A model generated the notes under the pieces. The model saw nothing but the letters and a program-made list of their open reading frames with translations, made no database searches and had not been told where the DNA came from. Below, in pieces: positions 2,715 through 63,930 of a DNA stretch of 64,000 nucleotides. The translations under genes and the position numbers were made by a program. The stretch's first letter is position 1. Each line of letters begins with the position of its first letter. The stretch comes from Escherichia phage BF17: the sequence record MW822008.1. One strand, written 5' to 3'.

Positions 2715-2741
2715 GATAATATTAATCTAAAGGAACCTGAC

Positions 2742-3020
2742 ATGAATAACAACATAGATGTAATGTATGCAATGTATAACAAATATACTTGTGGAGCACC
2801 TACATTGGATTATGAATCAACCGAAAAGAACTGGAAATTTATAAAAGAATCAATCGTAGATGTTTTCGGTAGAGATCGAATAAACGCGTGGGCGAGTATA
2901 TGTCGTGATGATAATGGAGAAACATTCTACATCACTTATGTTACTATATATTATGGGAGCGAGTTTATAGTTGGATTACTTGAATGTTTAGTAGGAAAGG
3001 ATTTAGTAGTACTTATATAA
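2742..3020 (+). CDS. hypothetical protein
   Basis: 92-aa ORF with AAGGAA RBS. Confidence 0.4.
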   Translation: MNNNIDVMYAMYNKYTCGAPTLDYESTEKNWKFIKESIVDVFGRDRINAWASICRDDNGETFYITYVTIYYGSEFIVGLLECLVGKDLVVLI

Positions 3021-3038
3021 TATACATGGAGAAGTATT

Positions 3039-7497: not shown

Positions 7498-7515
7498 TTT
7501 TTCTTTTAAACGTAA

Positions 7516-7543
7516 GCCTCGAACTAGTTCGGGGCTTTTTTTA
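7516..7543 (+). terminator. intrinsic terminator
   Basis: GCCTCGAAC/GTTCGGGGC hairpin + T7. Confidence 0.6.
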
Positions 7544-7586
7544 TGCTAAATAAAGTATAATACCTTATAAAATAAAAGAGGTTGCT

Positions 7587-8363: not shown

Positions 8364-8374
8364 GGAGATAACCC

Positions 8375-9469
8375 ATGAGTGATTTTTTTGATTCATTTGT
8401 CAGTACTGGAACTAGTATAGTTAATGGTGTTATTGACAATATCAACATCATTAGAGAACCAGCTTTTGAGAATTATAACGCTGCACAACGTGTGTTTGGT
8501 ACAGCAGGTGAAATGGGTTTTTCATTCTATAATTTACCAAAATTTAAGAACAGTTTTATTATCGAATTTGTACTAACCCCGTTCGCAAAGAACTTTATTA
8601 AAACCCAACTCCCAGATACACATACTGATTTTGATGTTAATAATGTATCGTGCTTTGTAAAAGATGTAACACTTCCTAGTTTTTCTTTTAGTGTTGAAAC
8701 CGTAAACCAATACAACAAAAAACGTTTAGTTACTGGTGATATTGTTTATAAACCAAGTAATGTTGTCTTCTACGATACTGTTGATGGTGCTGGATATCTC
8801 CTAATGGACGCATATCGTAAGTTCTACTATGGTGACTTCTTTGACAAGAACCCACAATCTTACCGAAATGACGTACTCAGTACACCAGAAAATTTCAATG
8901 GTTTAGGTGGAAACTGGGGTCGTTCTGTAATGAACAATGGTAACTACGACAACCAGTACTTTTTCAAATCAATTAATATCTATGAAATTGATAATGAAAC
9001 CTATACAGTTCATAACATGATAAATGTATTCATCGAAGATATACAATTAGAAACTAAATCTATGGAAAGTGAAGGTGACCCAGCACTATTATCTTTGACT
9101 ATGCGTTATGAAGCGTGTAACAACTTTGGTCCTGAAGGGTACTTGAGTATTGGTGTCCCTACAATGGAAATTGCACAACTCATCACCGATACTGAAGGTC
9201 TTGGTGTGAGTGGATTCTTTAAGTACTTTGGTGAACTTGATGACAAAACTAAAGGAATTTCGACAGTTGGTAAAATTATCCGAGCAGGAACATCAGTTAG
9301 TGATATAATCAGTAGTGCTGGTGATATCCTTCGTGGTGACATTACTCCTGATACCATCCGAAACATAGGTTCCGCAGTGACAAGAGGTGCAAATGCTATT
9401 GGTTTAGGAAGCATCGTTTCTTCTGCAAGCTCAAAATTCGGATTAGGTAACATATTAGGAGATTTTTAA
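8375..9469 (+). CDS. hypothetical virion protein (possibly tube-initiator-like)
   Basis: 364-aa ORF immediately after tube genes; AAGGAG RBS; no motif recognised. Confidence 0.4.
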   Translation: MSDFFDSFVSTGTSIVNGVIDNINIIREPAFENYNAAQRVFGTAGEMGFSFYNLPKFKNSFIIEFVLTPFAKNFIKTQLPDTHTDFDVNNVSCFVKDVTLPSFSFSVETVNQYNKKRLVTGDIVYKPSNVVFYDTVDGAGYLLMDAYRKFYYGDFFDKNPQSYRNDVLSTPENFNGLGGNWGRSVMNNGNYDNQYFFKSINIYEIDNETYTVHNMINVFIEDIQLETKSMESEGDPALLSLTMRYEACNNFGPEGYLSIGVPTMEIAQLITDTEGLGVSGFFKYFGELDDKTKGISTVGKIIRAGTSVSDIISSAGDILRGDITPDTIRNIGSAVTRGANAIGLGSIVSSASSKFGLGNILGDF

Positions 9470-44325: not shown

Positions 44326-44353
44326 TTGACAAACGCAAAGAATGTGATATAAT
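44326..44353 (+). promoter_or_regulatory. sigma70-type promoter (TTGACA-N16-TGnTATAAT) for ClpA-like gene
   Basis: TTGACA 44326-44331, TGTGATATAAT 44343-44353; same architecture as P1/P2. Confidence 0.7.
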
Positions 44354-44391
44354 GTTTATTAATTAGAGTGACTACTCATTTAGGAGAATAC

Positions 44392-46680: not shown

Positions 46681-46712
46681 AAAAGAAAAGGAGAGCAAAT
46701 GCTCTCCTTTTT
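46681..46712. terminator. bidirectional intrinsic terminator
   Basis: GGAGAGC-AAAT-GCTCTCC flanked by A-run and T5. Confidence 0.75.
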
Positions 46713-46713: not shown

Positions 46714-49700
46714 TTATTTAACTTCTAATAGATTTTTAATGTCATTACCACTTATTTGCAAACTATCGGAGTAAACAGATAGTTCGATTGGATAACTGTT
46801 AACACTATAACGTTTTAGTAAATTAACTTTACCTAAGTTCAAGCCATTAAATGAATATGTCACATTCTCTTTAAAGTCGTGTTCTGCACTATACATTACC
46901 CCACGGAGTAAGTTATTTGCAAAACGTACTTCAACTTTTTCAAAACCAAGAGAAATAATATCATTCATACTTGCACCAGCACCAGATAGAACATTATTAG
47001 TAACACTATATGGACTAACTGAATCTGGTTGTGAAACATAAGTAGCATTTTCTTCACTGATAGCAGTAATGTTAGTTACTGTTCCACCAACTACACCAAT
47101 ATATGTATCACTAACTAGTGGATATGCATATTCCCATACCCCGTCAGCATTCAGTACTGGTTGAATAATACCAACATCATACTCGAACACGTTAATTTCC
47201 ACACTATCAGTCATTTTGGTTCTCACTAACTCACTAAGAACACCTGCACCAGTAATTGGTAAGTTATATCCGTTATCAATGGTAACACCATCAACTTCAA
47301 ATATCTCGTTAGACACTACCCAAACATCAACGTCATCTGGTGTAATTCCATCATTATAAGAACCACCGTATAGTGTTGTGTCGTAGAATACTTCATAGTT
47401 CATTGCGTCGATAGCATAATTTCTATTTGTTTCATACAACTTAACACCATCAACCAAGAATTCTGGATCAGCAAAGGTTCTAATACGAACGATGTTCAAT
47501 GCTAGAGGTATTGCTGGTTCATTCTGTTGTTGTTTAGTGATGTTATCATAACGAAGCACAACTCCAGTACTATCTAGTAGTTCTACAGTTCCGTTCGCAG
47601 TGTTTCTTACTGTGTACAAGGTTGGTGTGGTGTCAGTTTTGATTTTTGATACACTCAAGATGGTTTCCCATGCATTGTTTTGGTATCTCACATAATCTTC
47701 ACCATCAGTTGTGAATATCATAACCTTATCACCATCAGATAGGGTATTGTCAATTACTTCAGCTTCTGTATCACTAACAATTGATTTAATTTTATAGAAG
47801 TATTTTTCATCATACTTACTGTATGATTTACTAATATCATTTTCAATCTTAGCGTAAGAAGGAATACTAACAATTGCTTCTGTTGTTTTATAAGGGTTGA
47901 TAATAACCATACCTTCAGTTTTATATCTACTATTGTCTCTCAATTGAACTAGTGAAACACTATTGAATCCATAACCATCAACTGTGAAGCGAATCTGACC
48001 AATCTTTCTTCCTGATGGGTTAATATCAGAAATGTCGATTATGTACGGATCTACTTCGTCACCTTCAACTTCCCATTTTAACTCGGAAGTTTGTGATTCA
48101 AGTGCTAGGTTATCAAATGCATTCATATCATCGTAGTACTTAGCATCGGTGATGCTATCTAGGATGTGCTGATAATCACTGTACATTGGGTTATTTCTAT
48201 CAAGAGGTAAGTCATCAAGATTTATTTCTGCCAATTGAACTAGTTGACCGTCAGTTATGAATTTGTCTTCCATGAAATCATCAATGCTTTGGTCATCTGG
48301 GATACTCTCGTATACACCATTAACATTAACATAAACATATTTTCGTGGCATCATAGTAAATGCATGAATATCAATAGGCATTCTACTTAGTATTTCTTCA
48401 GCCTTTTCATAATGGTCGGTAGCATCTTTGTCATACAAACCACGCATACCGGACAATACATGAATTGCGTCATTGTAGAATCGTTGATTTCCATTTTCAT
48501 CTACATGGCGATATGAATAAACACCATATTCAACTTCAAGTATAATTCTAACTTCATCATCAGTTGCAGTAGTATTGTTTTCTTTAATTAAAGAAACATA
48601 CTTATTATACAACTCACTACTAACTTCAAAGTAACCAAAGTTATAATCAGTACTGGATGCATAACCAAACGGTAGTCTGGTACTTGGATTATCATCATAG
48701 GTTAACCCACTAAATCCACATCCAACCTCATCATGAATTACTTCATCATCTGCACCTGTGTACAATTTCAAACGGTTAGAGAGTGTGTTATACTGAACAT
48801 AATGATTTACGTCATTAAACATTTCATTTTGTGTTGATTCTTTATATACACGATTCAACGTTTCTGTGAATTCTGCGGTTGCTACCAAATCATCTGCATG
48901 GTCTGCATACCATTGGTTAACACCGTAAGCAATCCCTAGAGTTACGTTCAATTCTGGGTAATACAATTGCATCTGATAAGCAACCAATAGGTCGAAATCT
49001 TCATCACTGTATTCTGGGAATGTATATTTGTAACGTTGTAATTCAAAATTACTAACAACATCTTGTGCATTAGATTGATATTTCTTATTCACTTCTTCCA
49101 ATACATCAACACTTGCCAAATTATCATTTGGTTTACATTGAGTGTTGTCGTAGTGCATGATAACATCAATTTCTTGGAAACGGCGATTAGGTGTTACGAA
49201 ATCACTTGGCAATTCACCAACTTGCTCCCAACGTTGAGTTACCTCATTGAATTGAGCATATTCATAATCCCAAATGTCTTTTTCCGTTTTAACCCAAGTC
49301 CCATCTGCAAATATATAGCCATTAGGATCTAAATCATTACACAAACCTTTAATTAAATCATCATCTGAAGTTTTCTGTTCAATCTGGGAACGAATCTTAG
49401 TTCTATATGGTTTAACTTCTTCAAAGTACTCAACGATTTGATTAATCAAGTTGTCGTTGGAATAGTTCTGTACTAATGATTGTTCTAAACCTACAATATA
49501 AATGTAAGATGTTTTGAATACCCAATCAACAACGCTTTGTTCTACGTGAACATACTTAACCATATCAAACACAATTTCACTCTGATGTAAGTCGAATGAG
49601 TTCTTCAATAAAGCTAGTGCTTTACGAACGTTAATCTCACGATTACTCAACGAACCATTAGCATCACGAACTGTATAGTCAGCGTATAACATATCATTCA

Positions 49701-52700
49701 ATTCAACTGTACTATTTTCACGACCAATTGCTTTCCAGTAAACTGAATCACGTGATTGTGCTTTAATGTACAATGTCCAGATGCCATCAACATCTGTAAT
49801 TCTGATAATGTCACCAACTTGATAGTTCTTAGTGTTTGCATCTTCTAGGCTGGATTCTTGTGTATATGCAGTATTTTTATCGTATCCAATATCATACCAA
49901 TCTGCTAGTGACCAGTACTGGGTCATGTCCAATGAAGTTCCTAGTGCTTCAACATAGTCTGATTGTTTAATCATTTTCTGTTGACCTTCACCACGGTTTT
50001 CCAATGTAATGGTAACCACACTACCAGCACTTGATGGACTATTCATTAGATGAATATAACCATTAGCATCAATATGCACAAAATATACAGAGCTAGTTGA
50101 TAGTGGGGTAGGTAATACACCACTAGTACTTACTAGTACTGCGTCGTTTTCTTTGAACTTGTCACTTTCAGGTGCAATGACTAATTCACTATTGTAAGTT
50201 AGCACACGATATGATACTTCATTCGGGTTAACTTCAGTAGTTTTAACATTAAACACTTCGTCCATTAGAACAGTGTTAGTTGTTATATTCTGTGAGCGAT
50301 AATAGTTATTTGCACTTTCTACAAAGTTTCTACGAGCTTCAATTACATCTTGGAACCAAGTCTTATTAGAACCTAAACCGTTTGGTACTAAAGGATATAG
50401 TAAATCAATAACAGTTCCTGATTCAGTAGTTTCTTGACCAATCATAGAATTCCACATAGAAGTCCAGATTGATGGATTGAAGTTATAGCTATCACCTTCT
50501 TTACATAATTGATACTGGTCATGTTTAATAACTTCAGTATTATCCATGTAATAAGAAACAGTTAAAATACTTGTGTCATCGTTGACTTCAAATTGCATAT
50601 TACTTAGAATGAACGAGCTTTCATTGATTGGTGCAAACCAAGGAATGTTAAGCTGTGCTGGTTCTTTAATAATACGAGCAATATCAGTACAAGATTTAGT
50701 TCTGGAATGTAATGGTGGTACATAAATTGTATCACGAACCCAGAAATAGTATTTTGTAACATAAGTATCAGTTGTGCTATCATATTCTAAGAACGTACTA
50801 TAATTATCTTCCAATGCGGTTCCGCTTGGTAGGTACATAGTGTTGTTTTTATTTTTGTTAGCAACGTCTTTACAGTATTTGTCCCAGTTATATGGTTCAA
50901 CTGGTGAACATACCCATTCAAGAACATCAACAGTACTGTGCGGTAACAATCTACCCCAGTTATAACGTTTATATTCATTTGTTGCATCAACATCCACATT
51001 ACCGTCAGCATCATAGATTGCACGAGTGTAATCTAAGTAGAAAGCAGTGCTGGTGTTCCACCAAACCTGACCAACTTTATCAGCACCCCATGCTTGAATC
51101 AATTCACCATTGCTGTTGTATTGTGCTGGGTCAACTGGAGATGTGTAGGTAACGTTCTGCATCGCTGCACCAGGAATAACACCGTTGATTGGGTCAAACA
51201 CGTTTAGGTACAACGCAGTAATGTTAGTACGTTCATCATATGTAGTTGGACGGTCAAACAAAGTACTTTGTGGAGCTTTAAAACTATATTTTCTGTCAAT
51301 GTATTCCTGACGCATCTCTTCAGTACTGAATCGTGAAACATAACGATACAAGCGTGGGCGAGTATCAGGATCAGTGAAGTCAATAGTGATTGAAGTGTCA
51401 AACGGAACTACCATAACTCTAGGGTCATTACCCGCAGTATAATATTGACTTTCTATAGTCAATGTATCTGGCATAAAGTTAGTTTCATCAACAAAGTAAT
51501 AATAATCACCATCATTTAGTGGGATATCATCACTTAGAGTTACTTTACAGAATTGTTCTGCATATACATCGGTATTTTCAATTGGAACGATAGAGAGCAT
51601 CTCAACTTCAGTGTCTACTAGTTCGAAAATATTCCACAAATCATTACCATCTTTAAACATCCATACAGAATCTGGGATTTCACCACTGTTATTCATATAA
51701 TTGATACGATCATTATATGCAGTACTGAAATCTTTAGTAACGTATGAAATTTCATCTAGTGTTACAGGACCAATGTCTGGAAGTTGGATATTCTCACTTC
51801 TTCCACTACGCATTGGGAATGAAAACTTACCATTTGGACGAGTAATCCAGCGTGAGTCAACCCCTTGTTCACCGTAATAAACAATACCATTACCAGTACC
51901 ATTTGATGTAGCATTAACATCAAACGAAACCATCTGTGGTTGTTGTTTAAATTGGTCATTGATTAGTTTAAATTGTAGATTTTTCTTACCATTGATATTA
52001 CCATAAGTACCAATCTTAAATGCCCATTCCTGAAGTGCTTTATATTCATCAGTGTCGTAAGATTTAGAAACGCGTAGTACTTTTTCCATTACTTGGTTAG
52101 TACCTTTGTCATGAATGAATCCTTTATAGAAATCAACACGACTAACATCACTACTAATCATACGTTGTAGATAATCACGAGTTTGATAGCCAATCAAGTG
52201 ATTTGATAACTCTTGAAGCTGAACATCACTCACAGGAGTTTCACTATTATAATATAATTCAAAATCAGTTACTAATTTTTCAAATGATGGTAAAGTTCCT
52301 GCTTCTAGGATAATGAAACCAGGTGCTTGTAGGCGACCAGTCCATGACCCAGTAATGTAACCATACATTTTAATCAATTCTTGAATAGCACCATAAGTTG
52401 GTTGGTAAATGTAATCACCAAAGATAGTTTTATCATCAAAAACAACTGCGTGTTCATATGAACTTAGGCTCAAACGAATCAACGCCATACGTTTTTGTGA
52501 TTCAGATGTAGTTCTCACTGTGAATACGTTACCGATACGCGAAGTTTCGATTTCATATTGACGGATGCCTTGGTTTTCATCATCGAGTAGTGACCAAACA
52601 CCACCACTATTCTGTGTAACAGATTGAACTGAACCAAAATCCGCACCAAATTTAGCATTAGCTGCACTTGGAGTACAGGAGATGAACTCACCAGTACTTA

Positions 52701-55700
52701 AATTATTCTGACTCCAAATAACAAAGTCTTTAGCAATAGTTGTCCAGTCTTGTTGAGTACCACTATCATTTACATCTTCAAAAATCCAGCCATGTTCTTT
52801 TAGATATTCACCATATCCACAAATGAAAGTATAAACTTCTTGGTATGTATTGAATATTTTACCATATTCTAATGTACCTTCAGATTTCCATTCATTGTAA
52901 TGAACAACAGTTCTGTCTTCCAATTTAAGAGTTACTTTTCTTCCATTTTTAACTGGAATTTTATATTTAAATTTAGCACCAACTAAATCATAACCATCAA
53001 TTTGATATGCACTACCATTCCAAGTAATTTTTACTGCACTCATTTGCTCATCGCGAATGTTATTGGAACGAACTAGACCGATAGTTTGGTTTTCTTGTGA
53101 AATCAAACCGAAAGATTTAGCAGTGAATGTCAATTGGTCTGCTTTAGTAAAGCCACCAATTTTGTGAGCGACATTGACATAAGAAGAACGAACAACGTCA
53201 CCGTATTTGGTGGTAATGTTCTTATTCTGATACATCAAATAGTCACTAACAAACATTTGATAACCGATAGTACGGGTGTTTTTCTCACCATGTACTAATG
53301 TAGTACTGTCAAAGTTTAGACGCTTACGGGTTTCACCATAAAGGAACTGTGAACCATCAGTATAAACTGGTTTAAGGTTATCATTACGGGTATCCCAGTA
53401 ATAGTTTGCAAACTGTGCTGGTTTTGCTTTGTATAGAAGAAGCATTTGGTCATAAGCAAACATCGCAGTGTTCATGTAAGTGAATTCCATGTCACCCATG
53501 TCACCATAAGACCACGGTTCTGCACGATGATCTAAATTACCACTAACAAGACCTAAAACTTCAGGTGCAATATACTCAACTTCACAAATATCAATACCAG
53601 TACTGGTTTTCTCGCCAGTCTTAGTGATTTTAAATGGCTGTACACCGAAACGCTTGTATTTGTCATATTGACCACGGCGTTCACCTGACAAAATAGTACC
53701 AGTACTGCTATCACCGATAGTACCATCAATATCCCACAATCCACTTGGGACCAAATCACCATTTTCATTCATTACTAGTGCTTCATACACATAAACAACA
53801 TCACCCTCACGTTCACCAACTTGAACTGCGGTTGGTTCGTATTCTTGGTTCCACCAAGTAGGACGTTGAGAGAAGCCCATCATTTCCCACGGATGGGTTG
53901 CTGGACGATATGTGCCATATTGGTCAGTATAGATTGCACGCCATGAACCACGAGCAGGAATTTCAGTACGTTGACCATCAACAACATAATAACTACCAGT
54001 ATAGTTCCAAGTTCTCCAGTTATTTGCATCATAATCATGAGTACTGTTACTAATGCCATTGGTTGCTGTGAAGTTAATGTAACCACGTAGTAATAGAGTT
54101 TTCTTTTCTTCTGCACTATAATCAGTACCAGTGAAATATGGAGTTGGGAATAGGTCTTCACTGTTTAGTACTGGTTTATAATCAATATCCTTGAAAGTAA
54201 GATCAATACTATTAAAGATACGATTTTCCAATTCAAAAACTACGTCATCCATTTTATCAACACCATTGATAACACGGTATGCTTTTGAAATAATACCAGT
54301 ATGACTGATATTATAACAGCTAGATTTACTACCAGCAGTTAAGAATGTTGCTTTTTGTGGTGTATAAGCTTGCAAAATACCCAAGAACTGTGGAGTTGGT
54401 GGGACAAATGCACGAATAAACCCAGCAGTGCTTGCAACGTTGTCATAGTAGAATGGGAATGTACTATCACGTCCCATATTAATAGCTGTTAGAATCGCAT
54501 CTACGATGTTTGATGCACTATTACCAAGAAAAGCACTTGGGTCTTCTTCATACAAACGAAGCATTTGAGTGTTGAACTTGTTAATGAAGCGGAAGTATTC
54601 TGCTTGCATAAACATGATTGATTCAAACAAATCAATATCTTCATTAGCGGTATGTGCCATTAGTGGTAACATGGACGCTTCGTTTTGAATAATTTTAGTG
54701 CCTACACCATTATTAACCAAACCAGCAGCCAAACGTTCTTCGTAATTGTTAAAGTCATCAGCAGAACCAGATGTAATATTCTTTTGAATAATATCTTGGA
54801 AGTGCAGGGTGTAATCACCTTGGTTGATGTATTCAATGTTTGAATTATATGGGTTATTTTGTAGATTAATTGGAACTTCATATGCACCCAACTCTTTATT
54901 AGGAGTGATAGTGCTACTATAAGTTCTGATTTGTACAACAGAATCTTCATCCAAATCAACAGAGCTATCAATTGTAATACTTTGTACTTGATTATTAACT
55001 ACAGTTTTTGTGTATTCTTTTATTTCCACACCATCAACAACTAGTTCGATAATATCATCAGAATTATCTAGTACTTTTTGTGCCAATTCAAATGTATGAT
55101 TGTACTTAACGCTTTGTACCCCATCACCAACGATAACATGCCAATCAAGATATGTTTCACGTTCTGCTTTGTAATATTGATAAGTTCTGTCAACTTCAAT
55201 TACATAAGCATACATTCCTTCAACTGGGTCTTTGAAACTTTCCATGTCATAAACAGTACTGAACACGCGGAACATTACTGTACGTTCAACCTGTGGAGTT
55301 TGTTTAACATATTGTTTGGAGTATTCAGTACTACGAACCCAATCAGTTTCTAGGTTCATTGTATTACCTTCACCAATTACGTTATAGTAATATAGTCCAT
55401 CAATTTCAACTTCCACACCCAAATGCTCGTAAGTATAACGAGTTGATTGTAGGAAATTCTCATATGTGTAATAATTGTAATCACCTAGTTCAATATTATA
55501 ACCATAAACGCTATCAGTTGCATAATTATAGTTAATTTTAAAACCAAATAGTGAAGAACCAGTAAAAGTACTTGATGGATAGGTAGTAGTGTTGTTTAGT
55601 TTAACACCATTACGGTCATACAATTGGAATTGTGGAAATACGTTCACAGAAGTTTTAGACTGTGCTTGAATCCAATGAGAACCGTCCCAATACATGGAAC

Positions 55701-56715
55701 TGTTACCAAATTCATTACCTTTGATAATAAGAACTACGTCACCATCTTGTGGTTCACCACTCGGACGGCTTTCAGATTCTTCGTCTGGATCTAATGCTAG
55801 ACCATACACACGTGTTCCATCTTGCATACGTTTAACATATACTTTATAAATTCGGTTGTTTTCACCATTGTTACCAATACTGGTGAAAAGAATACGCATA
55901 CCATCTTGTGGAATAATACCATCAATACGTATACCGCTGTTAATATCTTTTTGTACGATATCTTCAGGTTTAATAATATCAGAGAACAAATCAACTGTCC
56001 CACGGAATTTAGTACCGTAGTTCATTAGTTCGATATTTTTATTGTATTCGATAATTGGTGCACGAGCACGAACAAAACGGGAATCTTGCATTAGTTCTTC
56101 AGTTAGGATAGTACCATCTTCTAAAGTTTCACCTAATGTGTACCAGAAGTTTTGTAGTGACCAAGTGTTACCATTTTCTGCACCACGTTCCATTACAATA
56201 TAATCTGGAGTTGTGATATTATAGCTATTCTTGGAATCCCATAGGTATGAACTGTAGTTGTTCATTTTATTTGGGTTAATTGGTGGGGTCCATGAATAGA
56301 ACTTACCATTAAACAAACGGCTTTCATTTTCGGTTAGTGCACCGTAATGATTCATATAGCCAACTAGATCATCATAAAATTGAATTGAACGAATGCTGGA
56401 GTCATCATTTCTTGAGACATACGCAGTGGACAACTGATATAGTTGACGTGCGACTGTTGACTCGTGTAAGAAGATGTTCCCTGCTGCTGCCGGAGAACCC
56501 ATGTCACCAATGTAGCCGTCAACTAATTCGTTTTCAGCCGGATTAAACCATTGTTGGATAACATCATCACTGACTTTCTGAATATCTTCTAAGCCTTGCA
56601 TCCACTCAGGCAATCTTTTTATGAAAAGCTTCTTCTGTACTGCTTCAGCCATCTGTGTAGGTTGAAACTTAAAATTATTAGTCATTTTTGGACTCCATAT
56701 AATTCGTTCATTCAT
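46714..56715 (-). CDS. giant virion protein (3333 aa), putative baseplate or fibre-associated
   Basis: Single uninterrupted 10-kb ORF downstream of gp6-like gene; alternative start at 56685 (MTNNF) has GGAG RBS. Confidence 0.65.
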   Translation of the reverse strand: MNERIIWSPKMTNNFKFQPTQMAEAVQKKLFIKRLPEWMQGLEDIQKVSDDVIQQWFNPAENELVDGYIGDMGSPAAAGNIFLHESTVARQLYQLSTAYVSRNDDSSIRSIQFYDDLVGYMNHYGALTENESRLFNGKFYSWTPPINPNKMNNYSSYLWDSKNSYNITTPDYIVMERGAENGNTWSLQNFWYTLGETLEDGTILTEELMQDSRFVRARAPIIEYNKNIELMNYGTKFRGTVDLFSDIIKPEDIVQKDINSGIRIDGIIPQDGMRILFTSIGNNGENNRIYKVYVKRMQDGTRVYGLALDPDEESESRPSGEPQDGDVVLIIKGNEFGNSSMYWDGSHWIQAQSKTSVNVFPQFQLYDRNGVKLNNTTTYPSSTFTGSSLFGFKINYNYATDSVYGYNIELGDYNYYTYENFLQSTRYTYEHLGVEVEIDGLYYYNVIGEGNTMNLETDWVRSTEYSKQYVKQTPQVERTVMFRVFSTVYDMESFKDPVEGMYAYVIEVDRTYQYYKAERETYLDWHVIVGDGVQSVKYNHTFELAQKVLDNSDDIIELVVDGVEIKEYTKTVVNNQVQSITIDSSVDLDEDSVVQIRTYSSTITPNKELGAYEVPINLQNNPYNSNIEYINQGDYTLHFQDIIQKNITSGSADDFNNYEERLAAGLVNNGVGTKIIQNEASMLPLMAHTANEDIDLFESIMFMQAEYFRFINKFNTQMLRLYEEDPSAFLGNSASNIVDAILTAINMGRDSTFPFYYDNVASTAGFIRAFVPPTPQFLGILQAYTPQKATFLTAGSKSSCYNISHTGIISKAYRVINGVDKMDDVVFELENRIFNSIDLTFKDIDYKPVLNSEDLFPTPYFTGTDYSAEEKKTLLLRGYINFTATNGISNSTHDYDANNWRTWNYTGSYYVVDGQRTEIPARGSWRAIYTDQYGTYRPATHPWEMMGFSQRPTWWNQEYEPTAVQVGEREGDVVYVYEALVMNENGDLVPSGLWDIDGTIGDSSTGTILSGERRGQYDKYKRFGVQPFKITKTGEKTSTGIDICEVEYIAPEVLGLVSGNLDHRAEPWSYGDMGDMEFTYMNTAMFAYDQMLLLYKAKPAQFANYYWDTRNDNLKPVYTDGSQFLYGETRKRLNFDSTTLVHGEKNTRTIGYQMFVSDYLMYQNKNITTKYGDVVRSSYVNVAHKIGGFTKADQLTFTAKSFGLISQENQTIGLVRSNNIRDEQMSAVKITWNGSAYQIDGYDLVGAKFKYKIPVKNGRKVTLKLEDRTVVHYNEWKSEGTLEYGKIFNTYQEVYTFICGYGEYLKEHGWIFEDVNDSGTQQDWTTIAKDFVIWSQNNLSTGEFISCTPSAANAKFGADFGSVQSVTQNSGGVWSLLDDENQGIRQYEIETSRIGNVFTVRTTSESQKRMALIRLSLSSYEHAVVFDDKTIFGDYIYQPTYGAIQELIKMYGYITGSWTGRLQAPGFIILEAGTLPSFEKLVTDFELYYNSETPVSDVQLQELSNHLIGYQTRDYLQRMISSDVSRVDFYKGFIHDKGTNQVMEKVLRVSKSYDTDEYKALQEWAFKIGTYGNINGKKNLQFKLINDQFKQQPQMVSFDVNATSNGTGNGIVYYGEQGVDSRWITRPNGKFSFPMRSGRSENIQLPDIGPVTLDEISYVTKDFSTAYNDRINYMNNSGEIPDSVWMFKDGNDLWNIFELVDTEVEMLSIVPIENTDVYAEQFCKVTLSDDIPLNDGDYYYFVDETNFMPDTLTIESQYYTAGNDPRVMVVPFDTSITIDFTDPDTRPRLYRYVSRFSTEEMRQEYIDRKYSFKAPQSTLFDRPTTYDERTNITALYLNVFDPINGVIPGAAMQNVTYTSPVDPAQYNSNGELIQAWGADKVGQVWWNTSTAFYLDYTRAIYDADGNVDVDATNEYKRYNWGRLLPHSTVDVLEWVCSPVEPYNWDKYCKDVANKNKNNTMYLPSGTALEDNYSTFLEYDSTTDTYVTKYYFWVRDTIYVPPLHSRTKSCTDIARIIKEPAQLNIPWFAPINESSFILSNMQFEVNDDTSILTVSYYMDNTEVIKHDQYQLCKEGDSYNFNPSIWTSMWNSMIGQETTESGTVIDLLYPLVPNGLGSNKTWFQDVIEARRNFVESANNYYRSQNITTNTVLMDEVFNVKTTEVNPNEVSYRVLTYNSELVIAPESDKFKENDAVLVSTSGVLPTPLSTSSVYFVHIDANGYIHLMNSPSSAGSVVTITLENRGEGQQKMIKQSDYVEALGTSLDMTQYWSLADWYDIGYDKNTAYTQESSLEDANTKNYQVGDIIRITDVDGIWTLYIKAQSRDSVYWKAIGRENSTVELNDMLYADYTVRDANGSLSNREINVRKALALLKNSFDLHQSEIVFDMVKYVHVEQSVVDWVFKTSYIYIVGLEQSLVQNYSNDNLINQIVEYFEEVKPYRTKIRSQIEQKTSDDDLIKGLCNDLDPNGYIFADGTWVKTEKDIWDYEYAQFNEVTQRWEQVGELPSDFVTPNRRFQEIDVIMHYDNTQCKPNDNLASVDVLEEVNKKYQSNAQDVVSNFELQRYKYTFPEYSDEDFDLLVAYQMQLYYPELNVTLGIAYGVNQWYADHADDLVATAEFTETLNRVYKESTQNEMFNDVNHYVQYNTLSNRLKLYTGADDEVIHDEVGCGFSGLTYDDNPSTRLPFGYASSTDYNFGYFEVSSELYNKYVSLIKENNTTATDDEVRIILEVEYGVYSYRHVDENGNQRFYNDAIHVLSGMRGLYDKDATDHYEKAEEILSRMPIDIHAFTMMPRKYVYVNVNGVYESIPDDQSIDDFMEDKFITDGQLVQLAEINLDDLPLDRNNPMYSDYQHILDSITDAKYYDDMNAFDNLALESQTSELKWEVEGDEVDPYIIDISDINPSGRKIGQIRFTVDGYGFNSVSLVQLRDNSRYKTEGMVIINPYKTTEAIVSIPSYAKIENDISKSYSKYDEKYFYKIKSIVSDTEAEVIDNTLSDGDKVMIFTTDGEDYVRYQNNAWETILSVSKIKTDTTPTLYTVRNTANGTVELLDSTGVVLRYDNITKQQQNEPAIPLALNIVRIRTFADPEFLVDGVKLYETNRNYAIDAMNYEVFYDTTLYGGSYNDGITPDDVDVWVVSNEIFEVDGVTIDNGYNLPITGAGVLSELVRTKMTDSVEINVFEYDVGIIQPVLNADGVWEYAYPLVSDTYIGVVGGTVTNITAISEENATYVSQPDSVSPYSVTNNVLSGAGASMNDIISLGFEKVEVRFANNLLRGVMYSAEHDFKENVTYSFNGLNLGKVNLLKRYSVNSYPIELSVYSDSLQISGNDIKNLLEVK

Positions 56716-56733
56716 TTGATTTATTTATGATAT

Positions 56734-56765: not shown

Positions 56766-59700
56766 TTATGAACCAATGTTAATGTTACTCTTAGCCAAGG
56801 AATTGACTATCTGTACGTTATCAACTGATGCAGTACTTAAGAAAATCTGGTCAGAACGTGAAGGGATTTCAAATAGTGATCCAAATTTAGAGTTAGGGTT
56901 TTGAGCTACGATAACAATAGTACTAATATGTCGTCCTAATTGGGAGTGAATGTATGTACACAAGTCTGTGTAATAGAAACTTTCACCAAAATCCCAGTTG
57001 TCAACATTAAAATACTCGTTAGTTAGTGCTACGACATTTTGACGAATTTCATCATCACTCATTGTACTGTTAGGCAATTTGACGACTTTAAAATCTGCTT
57101 TATAATCTTCAGCAGCACTCGCACCAAATAATGGTAGATATTCTGCACTATGCCAAATAATACTGTCACTGATGACTATTTTTTGTTCAACTTCTTTAAA
57201 AATGTCTTTCAATTCAACAGATGTTGGCGGTTTAGGCATATTACCTTGTGTTCCATTCTTCAACCATACATCAACTTCAGTTTTGTATGAATTGGTTAAT
57301 ACATACATGTCAATCAAGTTTGTTCTACTTGGGTCAATGCGATTATCATCTGGTGCATAATGTTTCCAGTGGAAATCAATACCAGTTCTTGCATTCGTTT
57401 TTACGGTATATTGTGAAGTTACATCTTTATAACCATAATAATCTAACTTTTGGTTAACATCAGCATTAGTACCGATATTAACAATAGCACGATAAAACGC
57501 AAGTTCAGGAGTTGCAGCAGTTGTATCATCAGAATAGGTCAAGTTCTCAATTAATTGGTTTAAACGGTCATTATTATTACCAACAGTTTGTTCAATGAAG
57601 TAATATTTACCATCATAGTTAAAGCCAACTATAAAGCCTGAACCTTTACTATAGATACCACTCAATGTTGTTGATCGAATAGCATTGTTGCGAACAAATT
57701 CACTTCTCTTATACGCATTAGTTTCTGCAAGTGCCTGATCCATTGTATAAGCCCATGAAGAATCAAGAATAGTGAAAGTATCATTCGGTAATGACAGTAC
57801 TGATATAGTGAAATCATCGTTTTCTTGGAAAACCAATATACCACCATATTTAACTGAATCTTCACCAGTCCAATTTGGTACAATTTCTCTGAATTGATTA
57901 GGTTCTAGTGGGATTCCATTACTATCAACGTTTTCAGAGGTGATAACCACACGAGAACCATCAAGATACCCGTTTTCTTGTTGAATTGTGTCATAAATTT
58001 GGAAATCTATGTTACTTGTCAACCCAGCATTACTATTGCTTGTGGTATTTGATGATAAAATTTCAATTTTGTCACTTTGAACACTACCAGTACTAATATC
58101 AGTTATCTTTTTAGAAGAAACGAAGTAAAAACGAACTTTATCACCACCAACGAACACATATTCAACGCCATTCGCATCAAATTCCCAGGTTTCAGCAGTA
58201 TATTTGATGTTAATCATAACAAGAACTTCATTTCCATTATAAGAAATAGTATCTTCATCAGTACTGATTTCTAATGGAATCCAAGAAGTTGTTTCTTTAT
58301 CATGAATAATAACAAAATCTGTCTTTTTATCAAGCATTGCAGCGATTGCTTGCACTTCGACACTATTAAAACGTGTTCTGTATTGTAAAATGTACTCTTG
58401 TGCTTGCATATTTGATGAAACTGAAGTACTTAGAACGTAATATCCATTATCAAGAACACTAACAATACTAGCCCACACAGTAGTTCCGGCATTTGAAAAC
58501 TTAATCAACGTACCAACTTGATAATTTCCGAATACGTTACCTGTTGCCCCCATAATACGACCATACGTATTAGTTGCGTAATTAGAATTGTATTCAGGTG
58601 TCCATTTTTGTTGAATTTCAATACCAATTGTATTCGGTGGATATGCTTGATAACGTTGGATTACAGCATTCTCACCAATCAATGGCTGAATATTATCAAT
58701 TACAATACTAGCATTTGTTTTGGTAGTTGGTAATTGTAAAGATTTATTAAATTGTGTGTTTTCTTGATACATTGAACCATCATCACTAAACACATCAGTG
58801 TTTTGATACTTACCAGTTGGATCATTAATATCAATGAATCGTGACTGTCCACTATATAAACGGTTAATTGCTTTAGATTTAAGAACTGTGTTACCCAAAC
58901 TCAACGGAGCAATGTTATAGTCTTCGCCGTTAACAAAACGGTTTTGAGTGTAATACATTTGTGGAGCACGAGCCTTAATTTGTTCAATTGTTTCTGCACT
59001 TTGTGCACGATCTGATTCATATTGCAATGTGAAACGAATATCCAAAGTACTGGATTCATAGCTTGATTGTGTTTTGGTTCTATAGGTGTATTTTACACTT
59101 TTGTTCTGGATTTCAGACGTTTTAATGTTGTATGTTTCACCATTACTAACACGATACCATACACGATACGTCCCACGAGGAACAACACCACTACGAGAAT
59201 CAGGATACTTAATAGTAATCTGGTCTTTATCACGAGTTGTGACAGCAAAGATTGTTTTTAGTTGACGGTTAACAGTATTGTATGCGATACTTTCCATAGA
59301 TGGAACTTTGGTCCATTTAGTACGTACAATACCATCTTCGTTGATTTCCTGAACCCAAACATCAGTTTCGTTGATATTATCTACGTTGATGTCTTGGATA
59401 CGGTTTTCTTCACGAATATTATATTGGTAATCTTGGTATGTCAATGTCCCTTGAACAAAATAAACGAAGAAACCAGTATTTGGTGAACTAAATCCGTTAC
59501 CATCATTCTGATAAACGATATATTTTTGCTCTTGTGGTTCAGGGTGACGCTCTTCAACACCAACTGCTGTAATATCAGGGTTGACAACTTCAAATGTCAT
59601 CGATTCACCATTAACTGTAGCTGTGAATGGAAGACTTGGTGCTGACATTGGAATTGTATTCATACGATATAGCTGACGAGAAACACCATTGATATCGATA

Positions 59701-60227
59701 CGTTTAACCGGATTACCAAACTGGTTAGTACTGACAAATGAACTGTTCATAACTAGAATGAAGTTCTCATACCAGTTTGTGTCCATTGGGTCATTCCAAC
59801 GAATGATTTTATCCTTAAGTGATTCGTTAAAACTATTACGAACGTCTTGGTTGGTTTTTATTTCTGTTAATTTAGCAACTGCACGACCTGGATATGAACG
59901 GCGTGGAGAGTAAGAAATCATTTTTGCGAGTTTCAGTACTGATGCACGACGAGTAGCAGTATCTAGGAAGTTCTCACGAGTGTTTAAATCCATACGGAAT
60001 GCTAAGTTCTGTCCTAGCATAGAAATGGTATCTAGAATAAAGATGAACTGGTCGTTTTCGATCCAGTCGTTGAAAGAATCTGGGTACGTAGCACGTAGAT
60101 AGTCAATCATACTTTGACGGATTGTATCAAAGTCATAAGCTGTTAGATTGATCTTATAAAAGCTTTCATATACTTGAGTCCAATCTTCACCAGCGTATAA
60201 ATTTGATTGCCTTTTTTGTTGTGACAT
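56766..60227 (-). CDS. baseplate wedge protein, gp6/Baseplate_J-like (1153 aa)
   Basis: ENFLDTATRRASVLKLAKMISYSPRRSYPGRAVAKLTEI aligns by eye with T4 gp6 ESFMRTANLRSSVVQAAQDNGYLPTSKSAAQTEI (recalled); follows gp25-like gene. Confidence 0.6.
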   Translation of the reverse strand: MSQQKRQSNLYAGEDWTQVYESFYKINLTAYDFDTIRQSMIDYLRATYPDSFNDWIENDQFIFILDTISMLGQNLAFRMDLNTRENFLDTATRRASVLKLAKMISYSPRRSYPGRAVAKLTEIKTNQDVRNSFNESLKDKIIRWNDPMDTNWYENFILVMNSSFVSTNQFGNPVKRIDINGVSRQLYRMNTIPMSAPSLPFTATVNGESMTFEVVNPDITAVGVEERHPEPQEQKYIVYQNDGNGFSSPNTGFFVYFVQGTLTYQDYQYNIREENRIQDINVDNINETDVWVQEINEDGIVRTKWTKVPSMESIAYNTVNRQLKTIFAVTTRDKDQITIKYPDSRSGVVPRGTYRVWYRVSNGETYNIKTSEIQNKSVKYTYRTKTQSSYESSTLDIRFTLQYESDRAQSAETIEQIKARAPQMYYTQNRFVNGEDYNIAPLSLGNTVLKSKAINRLYSGQSRFIDINDPTGKYQNTDVFSDDGSMYQENTQFNKSLQLPTTKTNASIVIDNIQPLIGENAVIQRYQAYPPNTIGIEIQQKWTPEYNSNYATNTYGRIMGATGNVFGNYQVGTLIKFSNAGTTVWASIVSVLDNGYYVLSTSVSSNMQAQEYILQYRTRFNSVEVQAIAAMLDKKTDFVIIHDKETTSWIPLEISTDEDTISYNGNEVLVMINIKYTAETWEFDANGVEYVFVGGDKVRFYFVSSKKITDISTGSVQSDKIEILSSNTTSNSNAGLTSNIDFQIYDTIQQENGYLDGSRVVITSENVDSNGIPLEPNQFREIVPNWTGEDSVKYGGILVFQENDDFTISVLSLPNDTFTILDSSWAYTMDQALAETNAYKRSEFVRNNAIRSTTLSGIYSKGSGFIVGFNYDGKYYFIEQTVGNNNDRLNQLIENLTYSDDTTAATPELAFYRAIVNIGTNADVNQKLDYYGYKDVTSQYTVKTNARTGIDFHWKHYAPDDNRIDPSRTNLIDMYVLTNSYKTEVDVWLKNGTQGNMPKPPTSVELKDIFKEVEQKIVISDSIIWHSAEYLPLFGASAAEDYKADFKVVKLPNSTMSDDEIRQNVVALTNEYFNVDNWDFGESFYYTDLCTYIHSQLGRHISTIVIVAQNPNSKFGSLFEIPSRSDQIFLSTASVDNVQIVNSLAKSNINIGS

Positions 60228-60292: not shown

Positions 60293-60323
60293 CCAAAAAG
60301 AAAAGCACCCCGAAGAGTGCTTT
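60293..60323 (-). terminator. hairpin terminator between gp25-like and gp6-like genes
   Basis: AAAGCAC-CCCGAAGA-GTGCTTT stem with T-runs on both strands. Confidence 0.5.
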
Positions 60324-60329
60324 TATAAT

Positions 60330-60725
60330 TTACAAAGATGATACAGAATAGGTAGCCATTCTGTTGTTACTTCTTGCATCAAAAACTATAGTTAATTCTT
60401 CAAGAGTATTGAGAACAACATATTCAAGTACTATATCCATCTGATAACCGTACTCAATTCTTGATATTTGAAGTTTCTTTAAGCTTAAACGTGGGTCCAA
60501 GCTAATAATTCTACGGGCATCTGCTTCCAAAAGGTTGATTGTATTATAACCATCCAATTCAAATAGCAAATCCCACGCAATGAACCCATAATCAGCATCA
60601 AATGCACGTTCACCTTTTTTTGTATTGAAATGATTCATTAAATCCTGACGAACCAATTCACTGTCATACAATGTTTCAGTTCTTCCAACTACTGGAGTTG
60701 AAAAACCTTTAAAAACAATTGCCAT
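60330..60725 (-). CDS. baseplate wedge protein gp25-like
   Basis: TKKGERAFDADYGFIAWDLLFE matches T4 gp25 TRKGSRPFDPEFGCDLSDQLFE (recalled); 131 aa vs 132. Confidence 0.8.
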   Translation of the reverse strand: MAIVFKGFSTPVVGRTETLYDSELVRQDLMNHFNTKKGERAFDADYGFIAWDLLFELDGYNTINLLEADARRIISLDPRLSLKKLQISRIEYGYQMDIVLEYVVLNTLEELTIVFDARSNNRMATYSVSSL

Positions 60726-60740: not shown

Positions 60741-61229
60741 TTATACGGATTCGACGATGCGAGCCATCTTCTCCGCTCTGGATGTGGTTTGTTTGTACCA
60801 CGAACTATCACGCATTTCTTTACCAGCAGTTTTATAATCCCCACGACCGAGAGCAGCCATCGCTTTTTTGAAATTTAAAACTTTTGATTTACCCATTTGG
60901 AACACCATAAACCACAATACACGCTGAACCTGTACTGGAGCAGTCATTCCAAATTGATCATAGATTGATTTTGCGTCATTGTAAGCGGTCTGAGCATCTT
61001 TTATAAGGAGAGCATCAGCTTCTGCTTCAGTGAGTCCATTTTTGAAACTTTCACCCTTAAGTACAAGGTGACCGTAACCAATGGTATCAAGACCTAGACT
61101 GTCTTTATATACCCAAAACTTATCATTTTTAAAATAACCAAGTTTTTTCTGATACGCAATAGTACCTTCAAATTCTTTAATTTCTTTAAAAAATTGTTCG
61201 TCGGTATTTTTGATTTCCCATTTACTCAT
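60741..61229 (-). CDS. endolysin, T4-lysozyme family (GH24)
   Basis: EFEG...YKDSLGLDTIGYGH with Glu/Asp/Thr at T4L positions E11/D20/T26; MVFQMGKSKV and SSWYKQTTSRAEKMA motifs. Confidence 0.85.
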   Translation of the reverse strand: MSKWEIKNTDEQFFKEIKEFEGTIAYQKKLGYFKNDKFWVYKDSLGLDTIGYGHLVLKGESFKNGLTEAEADALLIKDAQTAYNDAKSIYDQFGMTAPVQVQRVLWFMVFQMGKSKVLNFKKAMAALGRGDYKTAGKEMRDSSWYKQTTSRAEKMARIVESV

Positions 61230-61266
61230 AAAGATTTCCTCATTATTATTTATAGTACTGAAATAT

Positions 61267-63930
61267 TTATTGACATGCCTCTAATCTACGTGCCATTAAT
61301 TCAGCACGGCGTGTAGTTTGACGATACCAAGCTGAATTTCGAATTTGAGCAGCAGCTTGCTTGTAGTTACCTTTAGCCATTTCAGATAGCATTGACTTAA
61401 ATTTCATTACACCACCTTTACCCATCTGGAATACCATTTGACATAGAACTTGTTGTGCCATGTAAGGTGTTTTCATCTTATAAGAAGCGTAAATGGATTT
61501 TGCGTCATATATAGCCTTACTACTATCACGCACCAACATATCATTGGCTTCCTGTTCGGTAATCCCACCAGAGAAGTTTTCACCACCAACAATCAAGTGA
61601 CCGTAACCAATAGTTGGGAATCCACGACTATCCAAATATCTCCAAAATTTACCATTGCGGTAATATCCTTTAGCTTGTTGATACGCCATTGTTCCTTCAT
61701 ATTCTTTCAATTCAGAAATAAATTGTGAATCACCCGGAACAACTTTCCAATCAATTGCAGTCTTATCAACATTACCCACATTGTATGATTCTTGTGCAGT
61801 AGGTGCTGGAGTACCCCCTGAACGTTGTGTTCTTCTACGACGAGGGACATGACGAGAACCACGTTGAGAATACCCAGTACCGATAGTTTTAATTTTAGTT
61901 GTTACAACTAATTCATCACTATCAACAGAAGGTTGAACAACAGCTTTCGGTGCTGCTTGGTTCGTTGCTTGTCCTGCAATTAATGTTTTATTTCCCGCTT
62001 CAGAACCTGTACCAGTCTGGGATGCATAGAATAATCCAGGGTCAACTGAACCACTAAATCCTAGTACGTTGGCAGAGGTAACTCTTATTTCAAATTGAAT
62101 AACACCATTAGCTTTACCGATAACTTGACCTTTTTGAACAACGTCTTTATTGAGCAAATCTGATTGAATATTATAAAATACAGATTTATATCCAGACTTA
62201 TGTTGAACCAATAAAGCACCATTAGTGATAACAACTACACCGCCATCTGGAGCTACAACATCACCCTTGCACTGTATTTCCCAGCCACTTCTATCAGCTT
62301 TACCACCACCACTTGTCGGGACACCTTTCCCCCAATAACCGTATTGGCGAATGGTTCCACTACACGGCATGAACATATGAAGACCTTCATACGTAATGCT
62401 ATAACCAGTCATACCAGGATCAGAAGTCATTAAATCTTGTGTTTGAACTTGTTCTGTTTCTGTTGTATAATTTACATATTGAATTGCTTCAGTGTCCTGT
62501 ACTGGAGCTAAAGTTGGAGCTACATCATTAGCAGGTTCAGGTTGAACTGGGGATTCACTATTCCCACTACCACCACCTTGACGTGGAGGTTCAACAGTAC
62601 TGCCGTGATTCTCAGCATCAACCCAAGCCGATATATCATGTATATGATCATTCAAGCCAGCAGATGGGGTGCGGAAGTTTGGTGCATTAAATTCAGCAGT
62701 ACCACTATTACCACCACTGTTAACAGTAAGAGTTTGACCACCACCACTAATAATAGCTGATGAAGAACCAATAAGATTAGCACTGGTAGCAGCAGAGATT
62801 GACGCATTAGAACCAGCAGTTATATCAGTACTGCTACCACTTTGCATACGTAATGAAGCTGCTGTTACTAAACGTAAATCTGCTCCAGCGTTAATAACAA
62901 CCTGACCACCAACTTTAGCATCCAATGCACCAACCAAATCTAGTTTAGTGTTTGCACCAACACGAGCATTGAAGTCTGCTCCACTTTCAATATTATATGA
63001 GCGTCCAGCAACCATGTTAATATCTTGACCTGCACGAATGTTAATATTCTTATCACAGTGCATTTCAATATCACCTTCACCAGTGAATTTAATACGTGCA
63101 GTACCATCACGGTTAATTAAAAGAACATCACCAGAGGCTTCAGATAACAACAACTGTGCACCACTACGTGTTTTAATTACAACGCCTTCATTTTTACGAG
63201 AACCAACACGAGTATCGTTCACTGGGTTATTGAATTGGGTATCCTGATAACCATCTGGATCTTGATCCCATGTAGGTGCTGTTAATTCTTCTTCTGTGTA
63301 ACCATCATCAATAATAAAACTGTTACCACGAGGTGAGGAAAGACCATAAACAGTACTGGTGGTCTGGCGAGTACTGCTACGGTTAGCAACACCCGCTTCC
63401 TCATCATAAAGTAAGTTTTGTTTTTTCAGACCTGCAATAATTGGAACGTTTGCATATTTGTCTTGAGTACTGGTAGAAATTGTATTACGGTCATAATCAG
63501 TTACGGGTAATGGCATATCAGTACCAGCATAGTTGCTTATTTCAGTAGCCATCCCAGGAACCATCGTATTCATACGTTGGTCATAAACACAACCAATCCA
63601 ATACGCTTGGAATGTTCTTGCTTGTGCAAATATAACAACAACAGTACATCCGACATCAGGTGGAACCGCCCAAAAACCATATCCCTTTGGATATTGACCA
63701 TAAGCATCAGCACTTGGTATCCCTGGAGTTTTGCCAGCGAATGGAGACATGTATGATGCTTCAATCCATGACTCTTTTGAATTTTTATCACTTTGTGAAC
63801 CTTGAATCCACACTTTTAGCTTACCGGATTTAGTTGGGTCACGGTTATCCATCACGGTTGCTAGTTGTGGGTACGAAGGGTCAAAACGACCCAACTGTTG
63901 TTGGGCATATTTCTTACTTGTATCTGCCAT
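61267..63930 (-). CDS. baseplate central spike with C-terminal lysozyme domain and degenerate M23-like domain
   Basis: N-terminal OB-type region (KLKVWIQG...WIEASYMSPFAG...YWIGCVY), central beta-helical repeats, M23-like block lacking conserved His, C-terminal GH24 domain (EYEG...YLDSRGFPTIGYGH). Confidence 0.7.
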   Translation of the reverse strand: MADTSKKYAQQQLGRFDPSYPQLATVMDNRDPTKSGKLKVWIQGSQSDKNSKESWIEASYMSPFAGKTPGIPSADAYGQYPKGYGFWAVPPDVGCTVVVIFAQARTFQAYWIGCVYDQRMNTMVPGMATEISNYAGTDMPLPVTDYDRNTISTSTQDKYANVPIIAGLKKQNLLYDEEAGVANRSSTRQTTSTVYGLSSPRGNSFIIDDGYTEEELTAPTWDQDPDGYQDTQFNNPVNDTRVGSRKNEGVVIKTRSGAQLLLSEASGDVLLINRDGTARIKFTGEGDIEMHCDKNINIRAGQDINMVAGRSYNIESGADFNARVGANTKLDLVGALDAKVGGQVVINAGADLRLVTAASLRMQSGSSTDITAGSNASISAATSANLIGSSSAIISGGGQTLTVNSGGNSGTAEFNAPNFRTPSAGLNDHIHDISAWVDAENHGSTVEPPRQGGGSGNSESPVQPEPANDVAPTLAPVQDTEAIQYVNYTTETEQVQTQDLMTSDPGMTGYSITYEGLHMFMPCSGTIRQYGYWGKGVPTSGGGKADRSGWEIQCKGDVVAPDGGVVVITNGALLVQHKSGYKSVFYNIQSDLLNKDVVQKGQVIGKANGVIQFEIRVTSANVLGFSGSVDPGLFYASQTGTGSEAGNKTLIAGQATNQAAPKAVVQPSVDSDELVVTTKIKTIGTGYSQRGSRHVPRRRRTQRSGGTPAPTAQESYNVGNVDKTAIDWKVVPGDSQFISELKEYEGTMAYQQAKGYYRNGKFWRYLDSRGFPTIGYGHLIVGGENFSGGITEQEANDMLVRDSSKAIYDAKSIYASYKMKTPYMAQQVLCQMVFQMGKGGVMKFKSMLSEMAKGNYKQAAAQIRNSAWYRQTTRRAELMARRLEACQ

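Follow-up and report, generated by a model that had tools for sequence, protein, structure and literature searches.

The 64,000-nucleotide (nt) stretch of Escherichia phage BF17 analyzed here (MW822008.1; hereafter the window) comes from an Asteriusvirus, a Rak2-like jumbo coliphage, and contains a single 10-kb open reading frame (ORF) for a giant protein directly downstream of a gp6-like baseplate wedge gene. We propose that this giant is a late-expressed baseplate protein that occupies the slot of T4 gp7, where it would face outward as the wedge's third partner, without being a detectable gp7 homolog. The proposal is based on gene order rather than on structure, and we assign it a probability of about 0.55. 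That the giant sits in the baseplate in six copies per virion, touches the gp6-like protein and anchors fibers is inferred. An earlier note on this DNA, made from the letters alone, had suggested a gp7-like wedge protein here; a virion protein in the gp7 slot, with a gene order conserved down to ~27% identity, is what we find, while homology to gp7 is undetectable. The features of the giant gene are as follows.

46714..56715, minus strand: giant virion protein ORF (PHROG 10938), ATG to stop, 3333 codons plus stop, without internal stop
46714..56685, minus strand: probable true coding sequence from the second ATG (M11), 3323 amino acids (aa), ~381 kDa
49366..56685, minus strand: conserved core, residues 11-2450, present in all listed homologs at 24-86% identity
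46717..49365, minus strand: fast-evolving C-terminal part, aa 2451-3333 (~880 aa), Rak2-like enterobacterial clade only
56545..56652, minus strand: N-terminal conserved helical segment, about aa 22-57
52030..52431, minus strand: strongly conserved, mostly helical segment, aa 1429-1562

The uninterrupted frame of 3333 codons is exactly as previously described. At the ~36% G+C of the window about 7% of random codons would be stops, and therefore an open frame of this length does not arise by chance (probability ~e^-240, computed from the window composition). The giant gene is 99.7% identical at the nucleotide level to that of Escherichia phage Ecwhy_1 (99.7-100% across comparisons) and ~82% identical to those of 121Q, PBECO4 and phAPEC6 (Asteriusvirus, Rak2-like jumbo myophages), and megablast aligned the 10-kb gene over its whole length in 34 phage records. 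The protein matches PHROG 10938 with residues 11-3330 against profile positions 1-3324 of 3324 (E = 0, 5476 bits).

The translation probably starts at the second ATG of the frame, at 56685 (M11). We favor this start because a GGAG motif lies 7 nt 5' of it (56696-56693, minus strand), because M11 is invariant or nearly so throughout the alignments of the giant family, because the PHROG 10938 alignment and all homologs begin at residue 11, and because the annotated start of phAPEC6 gp245 is the ATG equivalent to M11.

The family to which the giant belongs is very large. Using the 2440-aa core as query, tblastn identified homologs in 92 phage records, in 72 of which the core was covered to at least 80% by one unbroken piece, as expected for the continuous frame that the earlier note had assumed. 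Split copies, in 3-11 pieces, were seen in a few records (e.g., CMSTMSU and the SD-x Salmonella phages) and are probably sequencing errors in those records. Further, a word-indexed search yielded 237 homologs, of which the 120 listed were all giants (2,780-5,640 aa). When residues 11-1200 were compared exhaustively by phmmer with 1.84 billion cluster representatives (clusters at 50% identity), 1,030 clusters reached E<=1e-3 and 599 of them E<=1e-30; almost all of the best 150 were 2,100-6,281 aa long. The hosts of phages with the core span Vibrio, E. coli, Pseudomonas and Agrobacterium. The earlier remark that phages rarely have proteins of this size is correct for isolates in general; the giant family itself is nevertheless large.

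The giant is a virion protein in three relatives, namely phAPEC6, CBB and PA5oct, which bears out the expectation that proteomics would find corresponding peptides. Virion mass spectrometry detected 17 peptides of phAPEC6 gp245 (381.88 kDa; PMC7247149) and 21 peptides of CBB_236 (PMC5259590), and the record of PA5oct gp128 carries an electrospray tandem mass spectrometry (ESI-MS/MS) flag. The CBB paper cites the giant merely as 'the largest ORF' for genome orientation (PMC5259590). Neither the records of these orthologs nor PMC7247149, PMC5259590, PMC3622015, PMC7318152 and PMC13070987 give a function or location for it. GenBank already holds the gene and its family, as an unassigned 'virion structural protein', and proteomics has seen the product; the ORF itself is no discovery. 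What is added here is that the family is very large and universally giant, that its link to the gp25-like and gp6-like wedge genes is ancient, and that its conserved core of 2,400 aa is without a detectable counterpart among solved structures.

The genes upstream of the giant in the window are as follows.

56766..60227, minus strand: gp6-like baseplate wedge protein, 1153 aa, matching PHROG 10646 over its full length and PHROG 219 at 3e-21
60330..60725, minus strand: gp25-like sheath initiator or wedge protein (GPW_gp25 at 1.5e-8; PHROG match)
60741..61229, minus strand: small lysozyme gene, 162 aa, matching PHROG 13211 positions 727-885
61267..63930, minus strand: gp5-like hub/spike protein with M23 and lysozyme domains, 887 aa, opening the visible part of the operon

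The two PHROG matches at 56766-60227 agree with the earlier statement that the giant follows a gp6-like gene. Homologs of this gp6-like protein in distant loci carry DUF8360, and its counterpart in phAPEC6, gp244, is present in the virion (PMC7247149). The 162-aa lysozyme resembles a free-standing duplicate of the lysozyme domain at the C-terminus of the neighboring gp5-like protein, PHROG 13211 being matched by both.

The order gp5-like, gp25-like, gp6-like, giant is found in the window, in phAPEC6, in an uncultured phage (L003, 28% identity) and in a Tara Oceans marine contig (L004). In phAPEC6 the operon starts with a 243-aa protein, followed by a gp53-like protein (Pfam Phage_gp53, 1e-4), a 749-aa virion protein and the gp5-like protein. 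PA5oct (26.7% by tblastn) has the gp25-like gp130, the gp6-like gp129 and the giant gp128; a wedge/pin gene resembling T4 gene 10 comes next, after a pair of small genes. Atu_ph07 (27.7% by tblastn; giant gp180) has a small unannotated gene, then the gp6-like wedge gene and, directly after it, the giant. Thus, in the window, phAPEC6, L003, L004, PA5oct and Atu_ph07 alike, the giant lies directly downstream of a gp6 homolog, which is the gene position of T4 gp7. Additionally, the start of the giant overlaps the gp6-like stop in L003 and Atu_ph07 and overlaps or abuts it in L004; T4 genes 6 and 7 likewise overlap. Fiber genes lie downstream of the giant in L003 and L004.

An ORF of ~195-240 aa follows the giant in the distant loci (L003 21490-22241, L004 23702-24310, L006 20518-21250, L007 23358-24196), preceded in three of the four (not L004) by a tiny ORF of 41-50 aa. 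This ORF may be a further conserved partner of the giant. The window has no equivalent directly after the giant; a Clp-like gene is inserted there.

Sequence and fold comparisons with gp7 itself weigh against our proposal. All 120 listed homologs of T4 gp7 carry PF21427, PF21428 and PF21456, and all three domains are absent from the giant. Alignment by hhalign of an 18-sequence T4 gp7 family with the giant family gave a probability of 0.18% (E 0.34), and a hidden Markov model (HMM) of the giant family scored T4 gp7 at -1.0 bits overall (best domain -0.9) and found nothing among T4 gp5, gp6, gp7, gp8, gp9, gp10, gp11, gp12, gp53, wac and gp15. The giant family was also compared by hhalign with the gp6-like family of its own phage, with the gp6/gp7 paralogy seen elsewhere in mind, and the probability was 0.1%. 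Solved gp7 was not recovered by the fold searches, in which the weak matches span merely 80-140 residues and include chains of several solved baseplates. Further, a second virion protein is encoded in the operon between the gp53-like and gp5-like genes (749 aa in phAPEC6, 894 in L003, 754 in L004, 674 in PA5oct). The 749-aa phAPEC6 protein had no Pfam or PDB sequence match, and this type of protein is a candidate for the hub (gp27-like) or for the actual gp7-like subunit. Its gene falls just outside the window. For the tail of a relative, the one reconstruction made has a resolution of 25 A (PMC7247149). The loci of the second virion protein are:

phAPEC6 gp240 (L005), 7147-9396
L003, 1415-4099
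L004, 893-3157
PA5oct gp134 (L006), 374-2398

A wedge heterotrimer of two gp6-like proteins and one gp7-like protein is present in all contractile systems studied, and its gp7-like subunits are often undetectable by sequence, as in P1, Pam3 and phiKZ (PMC9942802, PMC13250141, bioRxiv 10.1101/2025.07.21.665459). The assignment of P1 gp16 rested partly on its adjacency to a gp6-like gene (bioRxiv 10.1101/2025.07.21.665459). The failed homology tests therefore lower the claim that the giant is a gp7; they do not much lower the claim that it works in the place of gp7, because the gp7-like subunits of P1, Pam3 and phiKZ are equally unrecognizable by sequence.

The giant consists of a widely conserved core and a clade-specific C-terminal part. 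Dozens of Trp, Gly and Pro residues are invariant within core residues 11-2450. The C-terminal 883 aa gave 60 matches in a local phmmer search among the collected homologs, all from the Rak2-like clade. This part diverges faster even among close relatives: against one close homolog (P0002), identity is 71-83% from residue 2501 and 80-96% before it. The idea of a fusion with additional modules put forward in the earlier note is thus partly upheld, in the form of a clade-specific part of ~880 aa on a conserved core of 2450 aa. In distant marine members, CBM_5_12 and FG-GAP domains are inserted into the core, and weak T7-fiber-N (Phage_T7_tail) and CBM_X2 matches lie near the C-terminus. An exposed, host-facing part would explain both the CBM_5_12 and FG-GAP inserts and the fastest divergence being C-terminal.

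No domain, catalytic or other, was found in the giant with Pfam (whole protein at E<=0.01; 500-aa pieces at E<=5), NCBIfam gave no domain either, and neither database indicated an enzymatic motif, in agreement with the earlier note, which had recognized no catalytic motif by eye. PDB sequences gave no match, either to the giant alone or to a 20-sequence profile of its family. Self-BLAST detected no internal repeats, and BLAST against all ORFs of the window detected no paralog.

AlphaFold2, run with 22-sequence alignments, yielded confident models that cover aa 11-2390. Model A (aa 11-1200) reached a mean predicted local distance difference test score (pLDDT) of 85 and a predicted template modeling score (pTM) of 0.79, with ~23% helix, and is compact and multi-domain, not elongated. 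Model B (aa 1191-2390) is beta-rich, with a mean pLDDT of 78 and a pTM of 0.45. Both are mixed alpha/beta with about one quarter helix. Foldseek against BFVD retrieved family pieces only (template modeling scores 0.45-0.83, 13-34% identity), followed by weak, fiber-like local matches. The predicted fold is independently supported because the BFVD models of relatives superpose on it.

Two segments are highly conserved and modeled with low confidence. The helices of the segment at aa 22-57 (model residues 12-47) have pLDDT values of 32-66, with P36 invariant and L35, Q40 and F57 nearly so. The segment at aa 1429-1562 falls below a pLDDT of 50 (model B residues 239-372) and contains the invariant residues F1432, Y1437, W1458, G1460, A1464, G1466, G1532, K1537 and G1538. 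Such a combination of conserved helices and low confidence would be typical of segments that fold only on their partners. The helices at aa 22-57 are a candidate docking helix for the gp6-like dimer, and aa 1429-1562 a candidate interface between subunits.

If the giant does act in the gp7 slot, each of the six wedges would contain one giant and a pair of 1153-aa gp6-like chains. The giant would dock via segments that would be unable to fold alone, i.e., the helices around aa 22-57 and possibly aa 1429-1562. Its compact core of 2450 aa would make up the bulk of the baseplate in the intermediate and peripheral regions, which T4 builds from gp7, gp8, gp9, gp10 and gp11. The fast-evolving C-terminal ~880 aa would face outward and could anchor the clade-specific fiber and depolymerase apparatus or touch the cell surface. 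Six giants of 382 kDa and twelve gp6-like proteins of 131 kDa would add up to ~3.9 MDa, which is plausible for a baseplate of the size of that of CBB, measured as ~36 x 15 nm (PMC5259590).

As the main alternative, the giant could be a baseplate-attached adhesin, i.e., a primary receptor-binding or fiber-hub protein instead of a wedge subunit, with the gp7-like role played by another protein, such as the 749-aa one. Its best fold matches, weak as they are, are the N-terminal anchor domains of tailspikes and fibers, in line with the weak local fiber matches in BFVD; the carbohydrate-binding CBM_5_12 and CBM_X2, FG-GAP and weak Phage_T7_tail matches of distant members and the rapid evolution of the C-terminal part point the same way, and the second operon virion protein would be free to act as gp7. 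We nevertheless consider this unlikely. Conservation of some 2450 aa across hosts as different as Vibrio, E. coli, Pseudomonas and Agrobacterium is unlike receptor-binding proteins, and separate large fiber genes are located nearby. The hallmarks of tail fibers and tailspikes (trimeric repeats, beta-helix, coiled coil, fiber Pfam domains) were not seen in the giant, and its modeled fold is compact, not elongated. The absence of internal repeats and the compact model of aa 11-1200 (pTM 0.79) also speak against the earlier suggestion of a fiber protein. Less probable still is a location elsewhere in the virion, as an anchor of the tail 'hairs', a decoration of neck or collar, or an internal protein ejected into the host, with the place in the operon reflecting co-regulation. 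The N4 virion RNA polymerase, with 3500 aa, is an example of such an ejected protein. Mass spectrometry gives presence in the virion and not location, the fold is unlinked to any solved baseplate protein, and phAPEC6 and CBB bear unusual tail hairs of unknown composition (PMC7247149, PMC5259590). Against this, adjacency and start-stop overlap with the gp6-like gene have been kept over very deep divergence, and the giant lacks an enzymatic motif in Pfam and NCBIfam. Tail hairs are described, in the available accounts, for the phAPEC6/fEgEco12 and CBB lineages only, whereas the gene is in all 92 related genomes.

Two further explanations concern the length of the gene. As the largest gene in the genome, like the presumed tape measure of phiKZ, and with no tape measure annotated in the window, the giant might be taken for the tape measure protein or another determinant of tail length. 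Such proteins are overwhelmingly alpha-helical and of a length proportional to the tail, and the giant shows neither property: helix makes up only about a quarter of the models, which display beta-rich globular folds, and a tape measure of 3323 aa would, by our own estimate, correspond to a tail several times the measured length of ~110-128 nm. Moreover, the gene follows the gp6-like gene and does not lie between the tube/chaperone genes and the hub. This explanation is essentially refuted by the predicted structure. The notion that the long ORF is an assembly artifact or a decaying pseudogene, for which the copies in 3-11 pieces in a few database records could be cited, is refuted by the intact copies in 72 records, the conserved length and invariant residues, and the peptides in three phages.

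The transcription signals around the giant and in the operon, together with the Clp-like gene, are as follows.

56759-56738, minus strand: UUCG-tetraloop hairpin AAGGCGTTC-TTCG-GAACGTCTT followed by TTTTAT, in the 50-nt spacer between the gp6-like gene and the giant
60301-60324, minus strand: second UUCG hairpin with U-run, AAAAGCACTC-TTCG-GGGTGCTTTT, between the gp25-like and gp6-like genes
56722-56729, minus strand: late-promoter-like CATAAATA, a 7/8 match to the T4-type TATAAATA, 6 nt before the first ATG
61247-61254, minus strand: exact T4-type late promoter motif TATAAATA, just 5' of the small lysozyme gene
46685..46712, both strands: bidirectional terminator common to the giant and the convergent Clp-like gene
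44368-46680, plus strand: ClpA/ClpB-type double AAA+ gene, convergent, ending 33 nt from the stop of the giant
44326-44353, plus strand: perfect extended sigma-70 promoter (TTGACA, 16-nt spacer, TG, TATAAT), 15 nt 5' of the Clp-like gene

The exact motif TATAAATA occurs once in the 64-kb window, compared with 6.5 occurrences expected from shuffles, and a late sigma factor is annotated in phAPEC6. A transcript starting from CATAAATA would leave only M11 with a ribosome-binding site. The UUCG hairpin with its U-run is present in the spacer, as the earlier note had reported. Its reading as a terminator that separates the two genes need not imply an operon boundary, as a second UUCG hairpin lies inside the operon; the UUCG hairpins seem to punctuate the operon rather than to mark its end.

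The functional link to the ClpA-like gene considered in the earlier note is not supported. The gene is convergent with the giant and has its own sigma-70 promoter, which suggests early transcription by the host RNA polymerase from the strand opposite to the surrounding late structural genes. No Clp gene stands beside the giant in four distant lineages (L003, L004, PA5oct and Atu_ph07), and the Clp-like protein is absent from the available part of the phAPEC6 virion list (PMC7247149).

Other genes of the window were recorded in passing. Two adjacent genes on the minus strand, 23496-29216 (1906 aa) and 29366-34282 (1638 aa), both match the tail-fiber PHROG 4549 in several stretches and appear to encode paralogous long fiber proteins. 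A 713-aa protein (35315-37456) matches a 'colanic acid degradation' (depolymerase-like) PHROG. The 887-aa ORF at 3760-6423 on the plus strand has the same length as the gp5-like protein, yet the two are unrelated when compared; it probably encodes the 97-kDa tail sheath protein reported for relatives.

The wedge of two gp6 and one gp7 is found in every solved contractile injection machine; these machines differ chiefly in how this conserved core is extended into very different platforms for host recognition. If the giant fills the gp7 slot, then Rak2-like, PA5oct-like, Atu_ph07-like and many marine jumbo phages build their outer baseplate from one giant protein with a fold unlike the solved ones. 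It would be a clear target for structural biologists, and a gene now labeled 'hypothetical' would receive a name. For phage engineers, it would be a candidate carrier of the branched depolymerase fibers of therapeutic Klebsiella and E. coli jumbo phages. Going further, we raise as a tentative idea, with the odds somewhat against it, that the giant is the hallmark of a jumbo myophage clade, very large and mostly uncultured, in which one non-repetitive chain of 3,000-6,000 aa, with folds that no solved baseplate protein shows, replaces the entire set of intermediate and peripheral proteins of T4 (gp7 to gp11) as wedge subunit, scaffold and fiber platform. Should a single chain indeed replace these proteins, no larger baseplate protein would be known, and the chain would represent an independent way of making a big baseplate.

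Among known systems, 121Q gp582, phAPEC6 gp245, CBB_236, the RaK2 and GAP32 orthologs, PA5oct gp128 and Atu_ph07 gp180 represent the same gene (PHROG 10938), and the gene neighborhood of the Rak2-like orthologs is the same as that of the window. T4 gp7 (1032 aa; PF21427/PF21428/PF21456; PDB 5IV5) resembles the giant in lying directly after gene 6, in its coupled start (for the giant, in several lineages), in being a late virion protein and in being the largest wedge-operon protein of its phage. The expected common role would be to connect the ring of gp6 with the fibers and the baseplate periphery. The giant is three times larger than T4 gp7 and shares no Pfam, HMM, profile-profile or fold similarity with it, so that homology is not demonstrable. 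The minimal gp7/TssG-like subunits (Pam3 gp23, P1 gp16, phiKZ gp128, Mu gp48-type) are likewise encoded beside a gp6-like gene and are typically unrecognizable by sequence. They join two gp6-like chains by an N-terminal helix; in the giant, AlphaFold2 leaves a conserved helical segment near the N-terminus unplaced in the monomer. In phiKZ, gp27, gp139, gp130 and others form an enlarged peripheral fiber platform around a conserved wedge core (PMC13250141).

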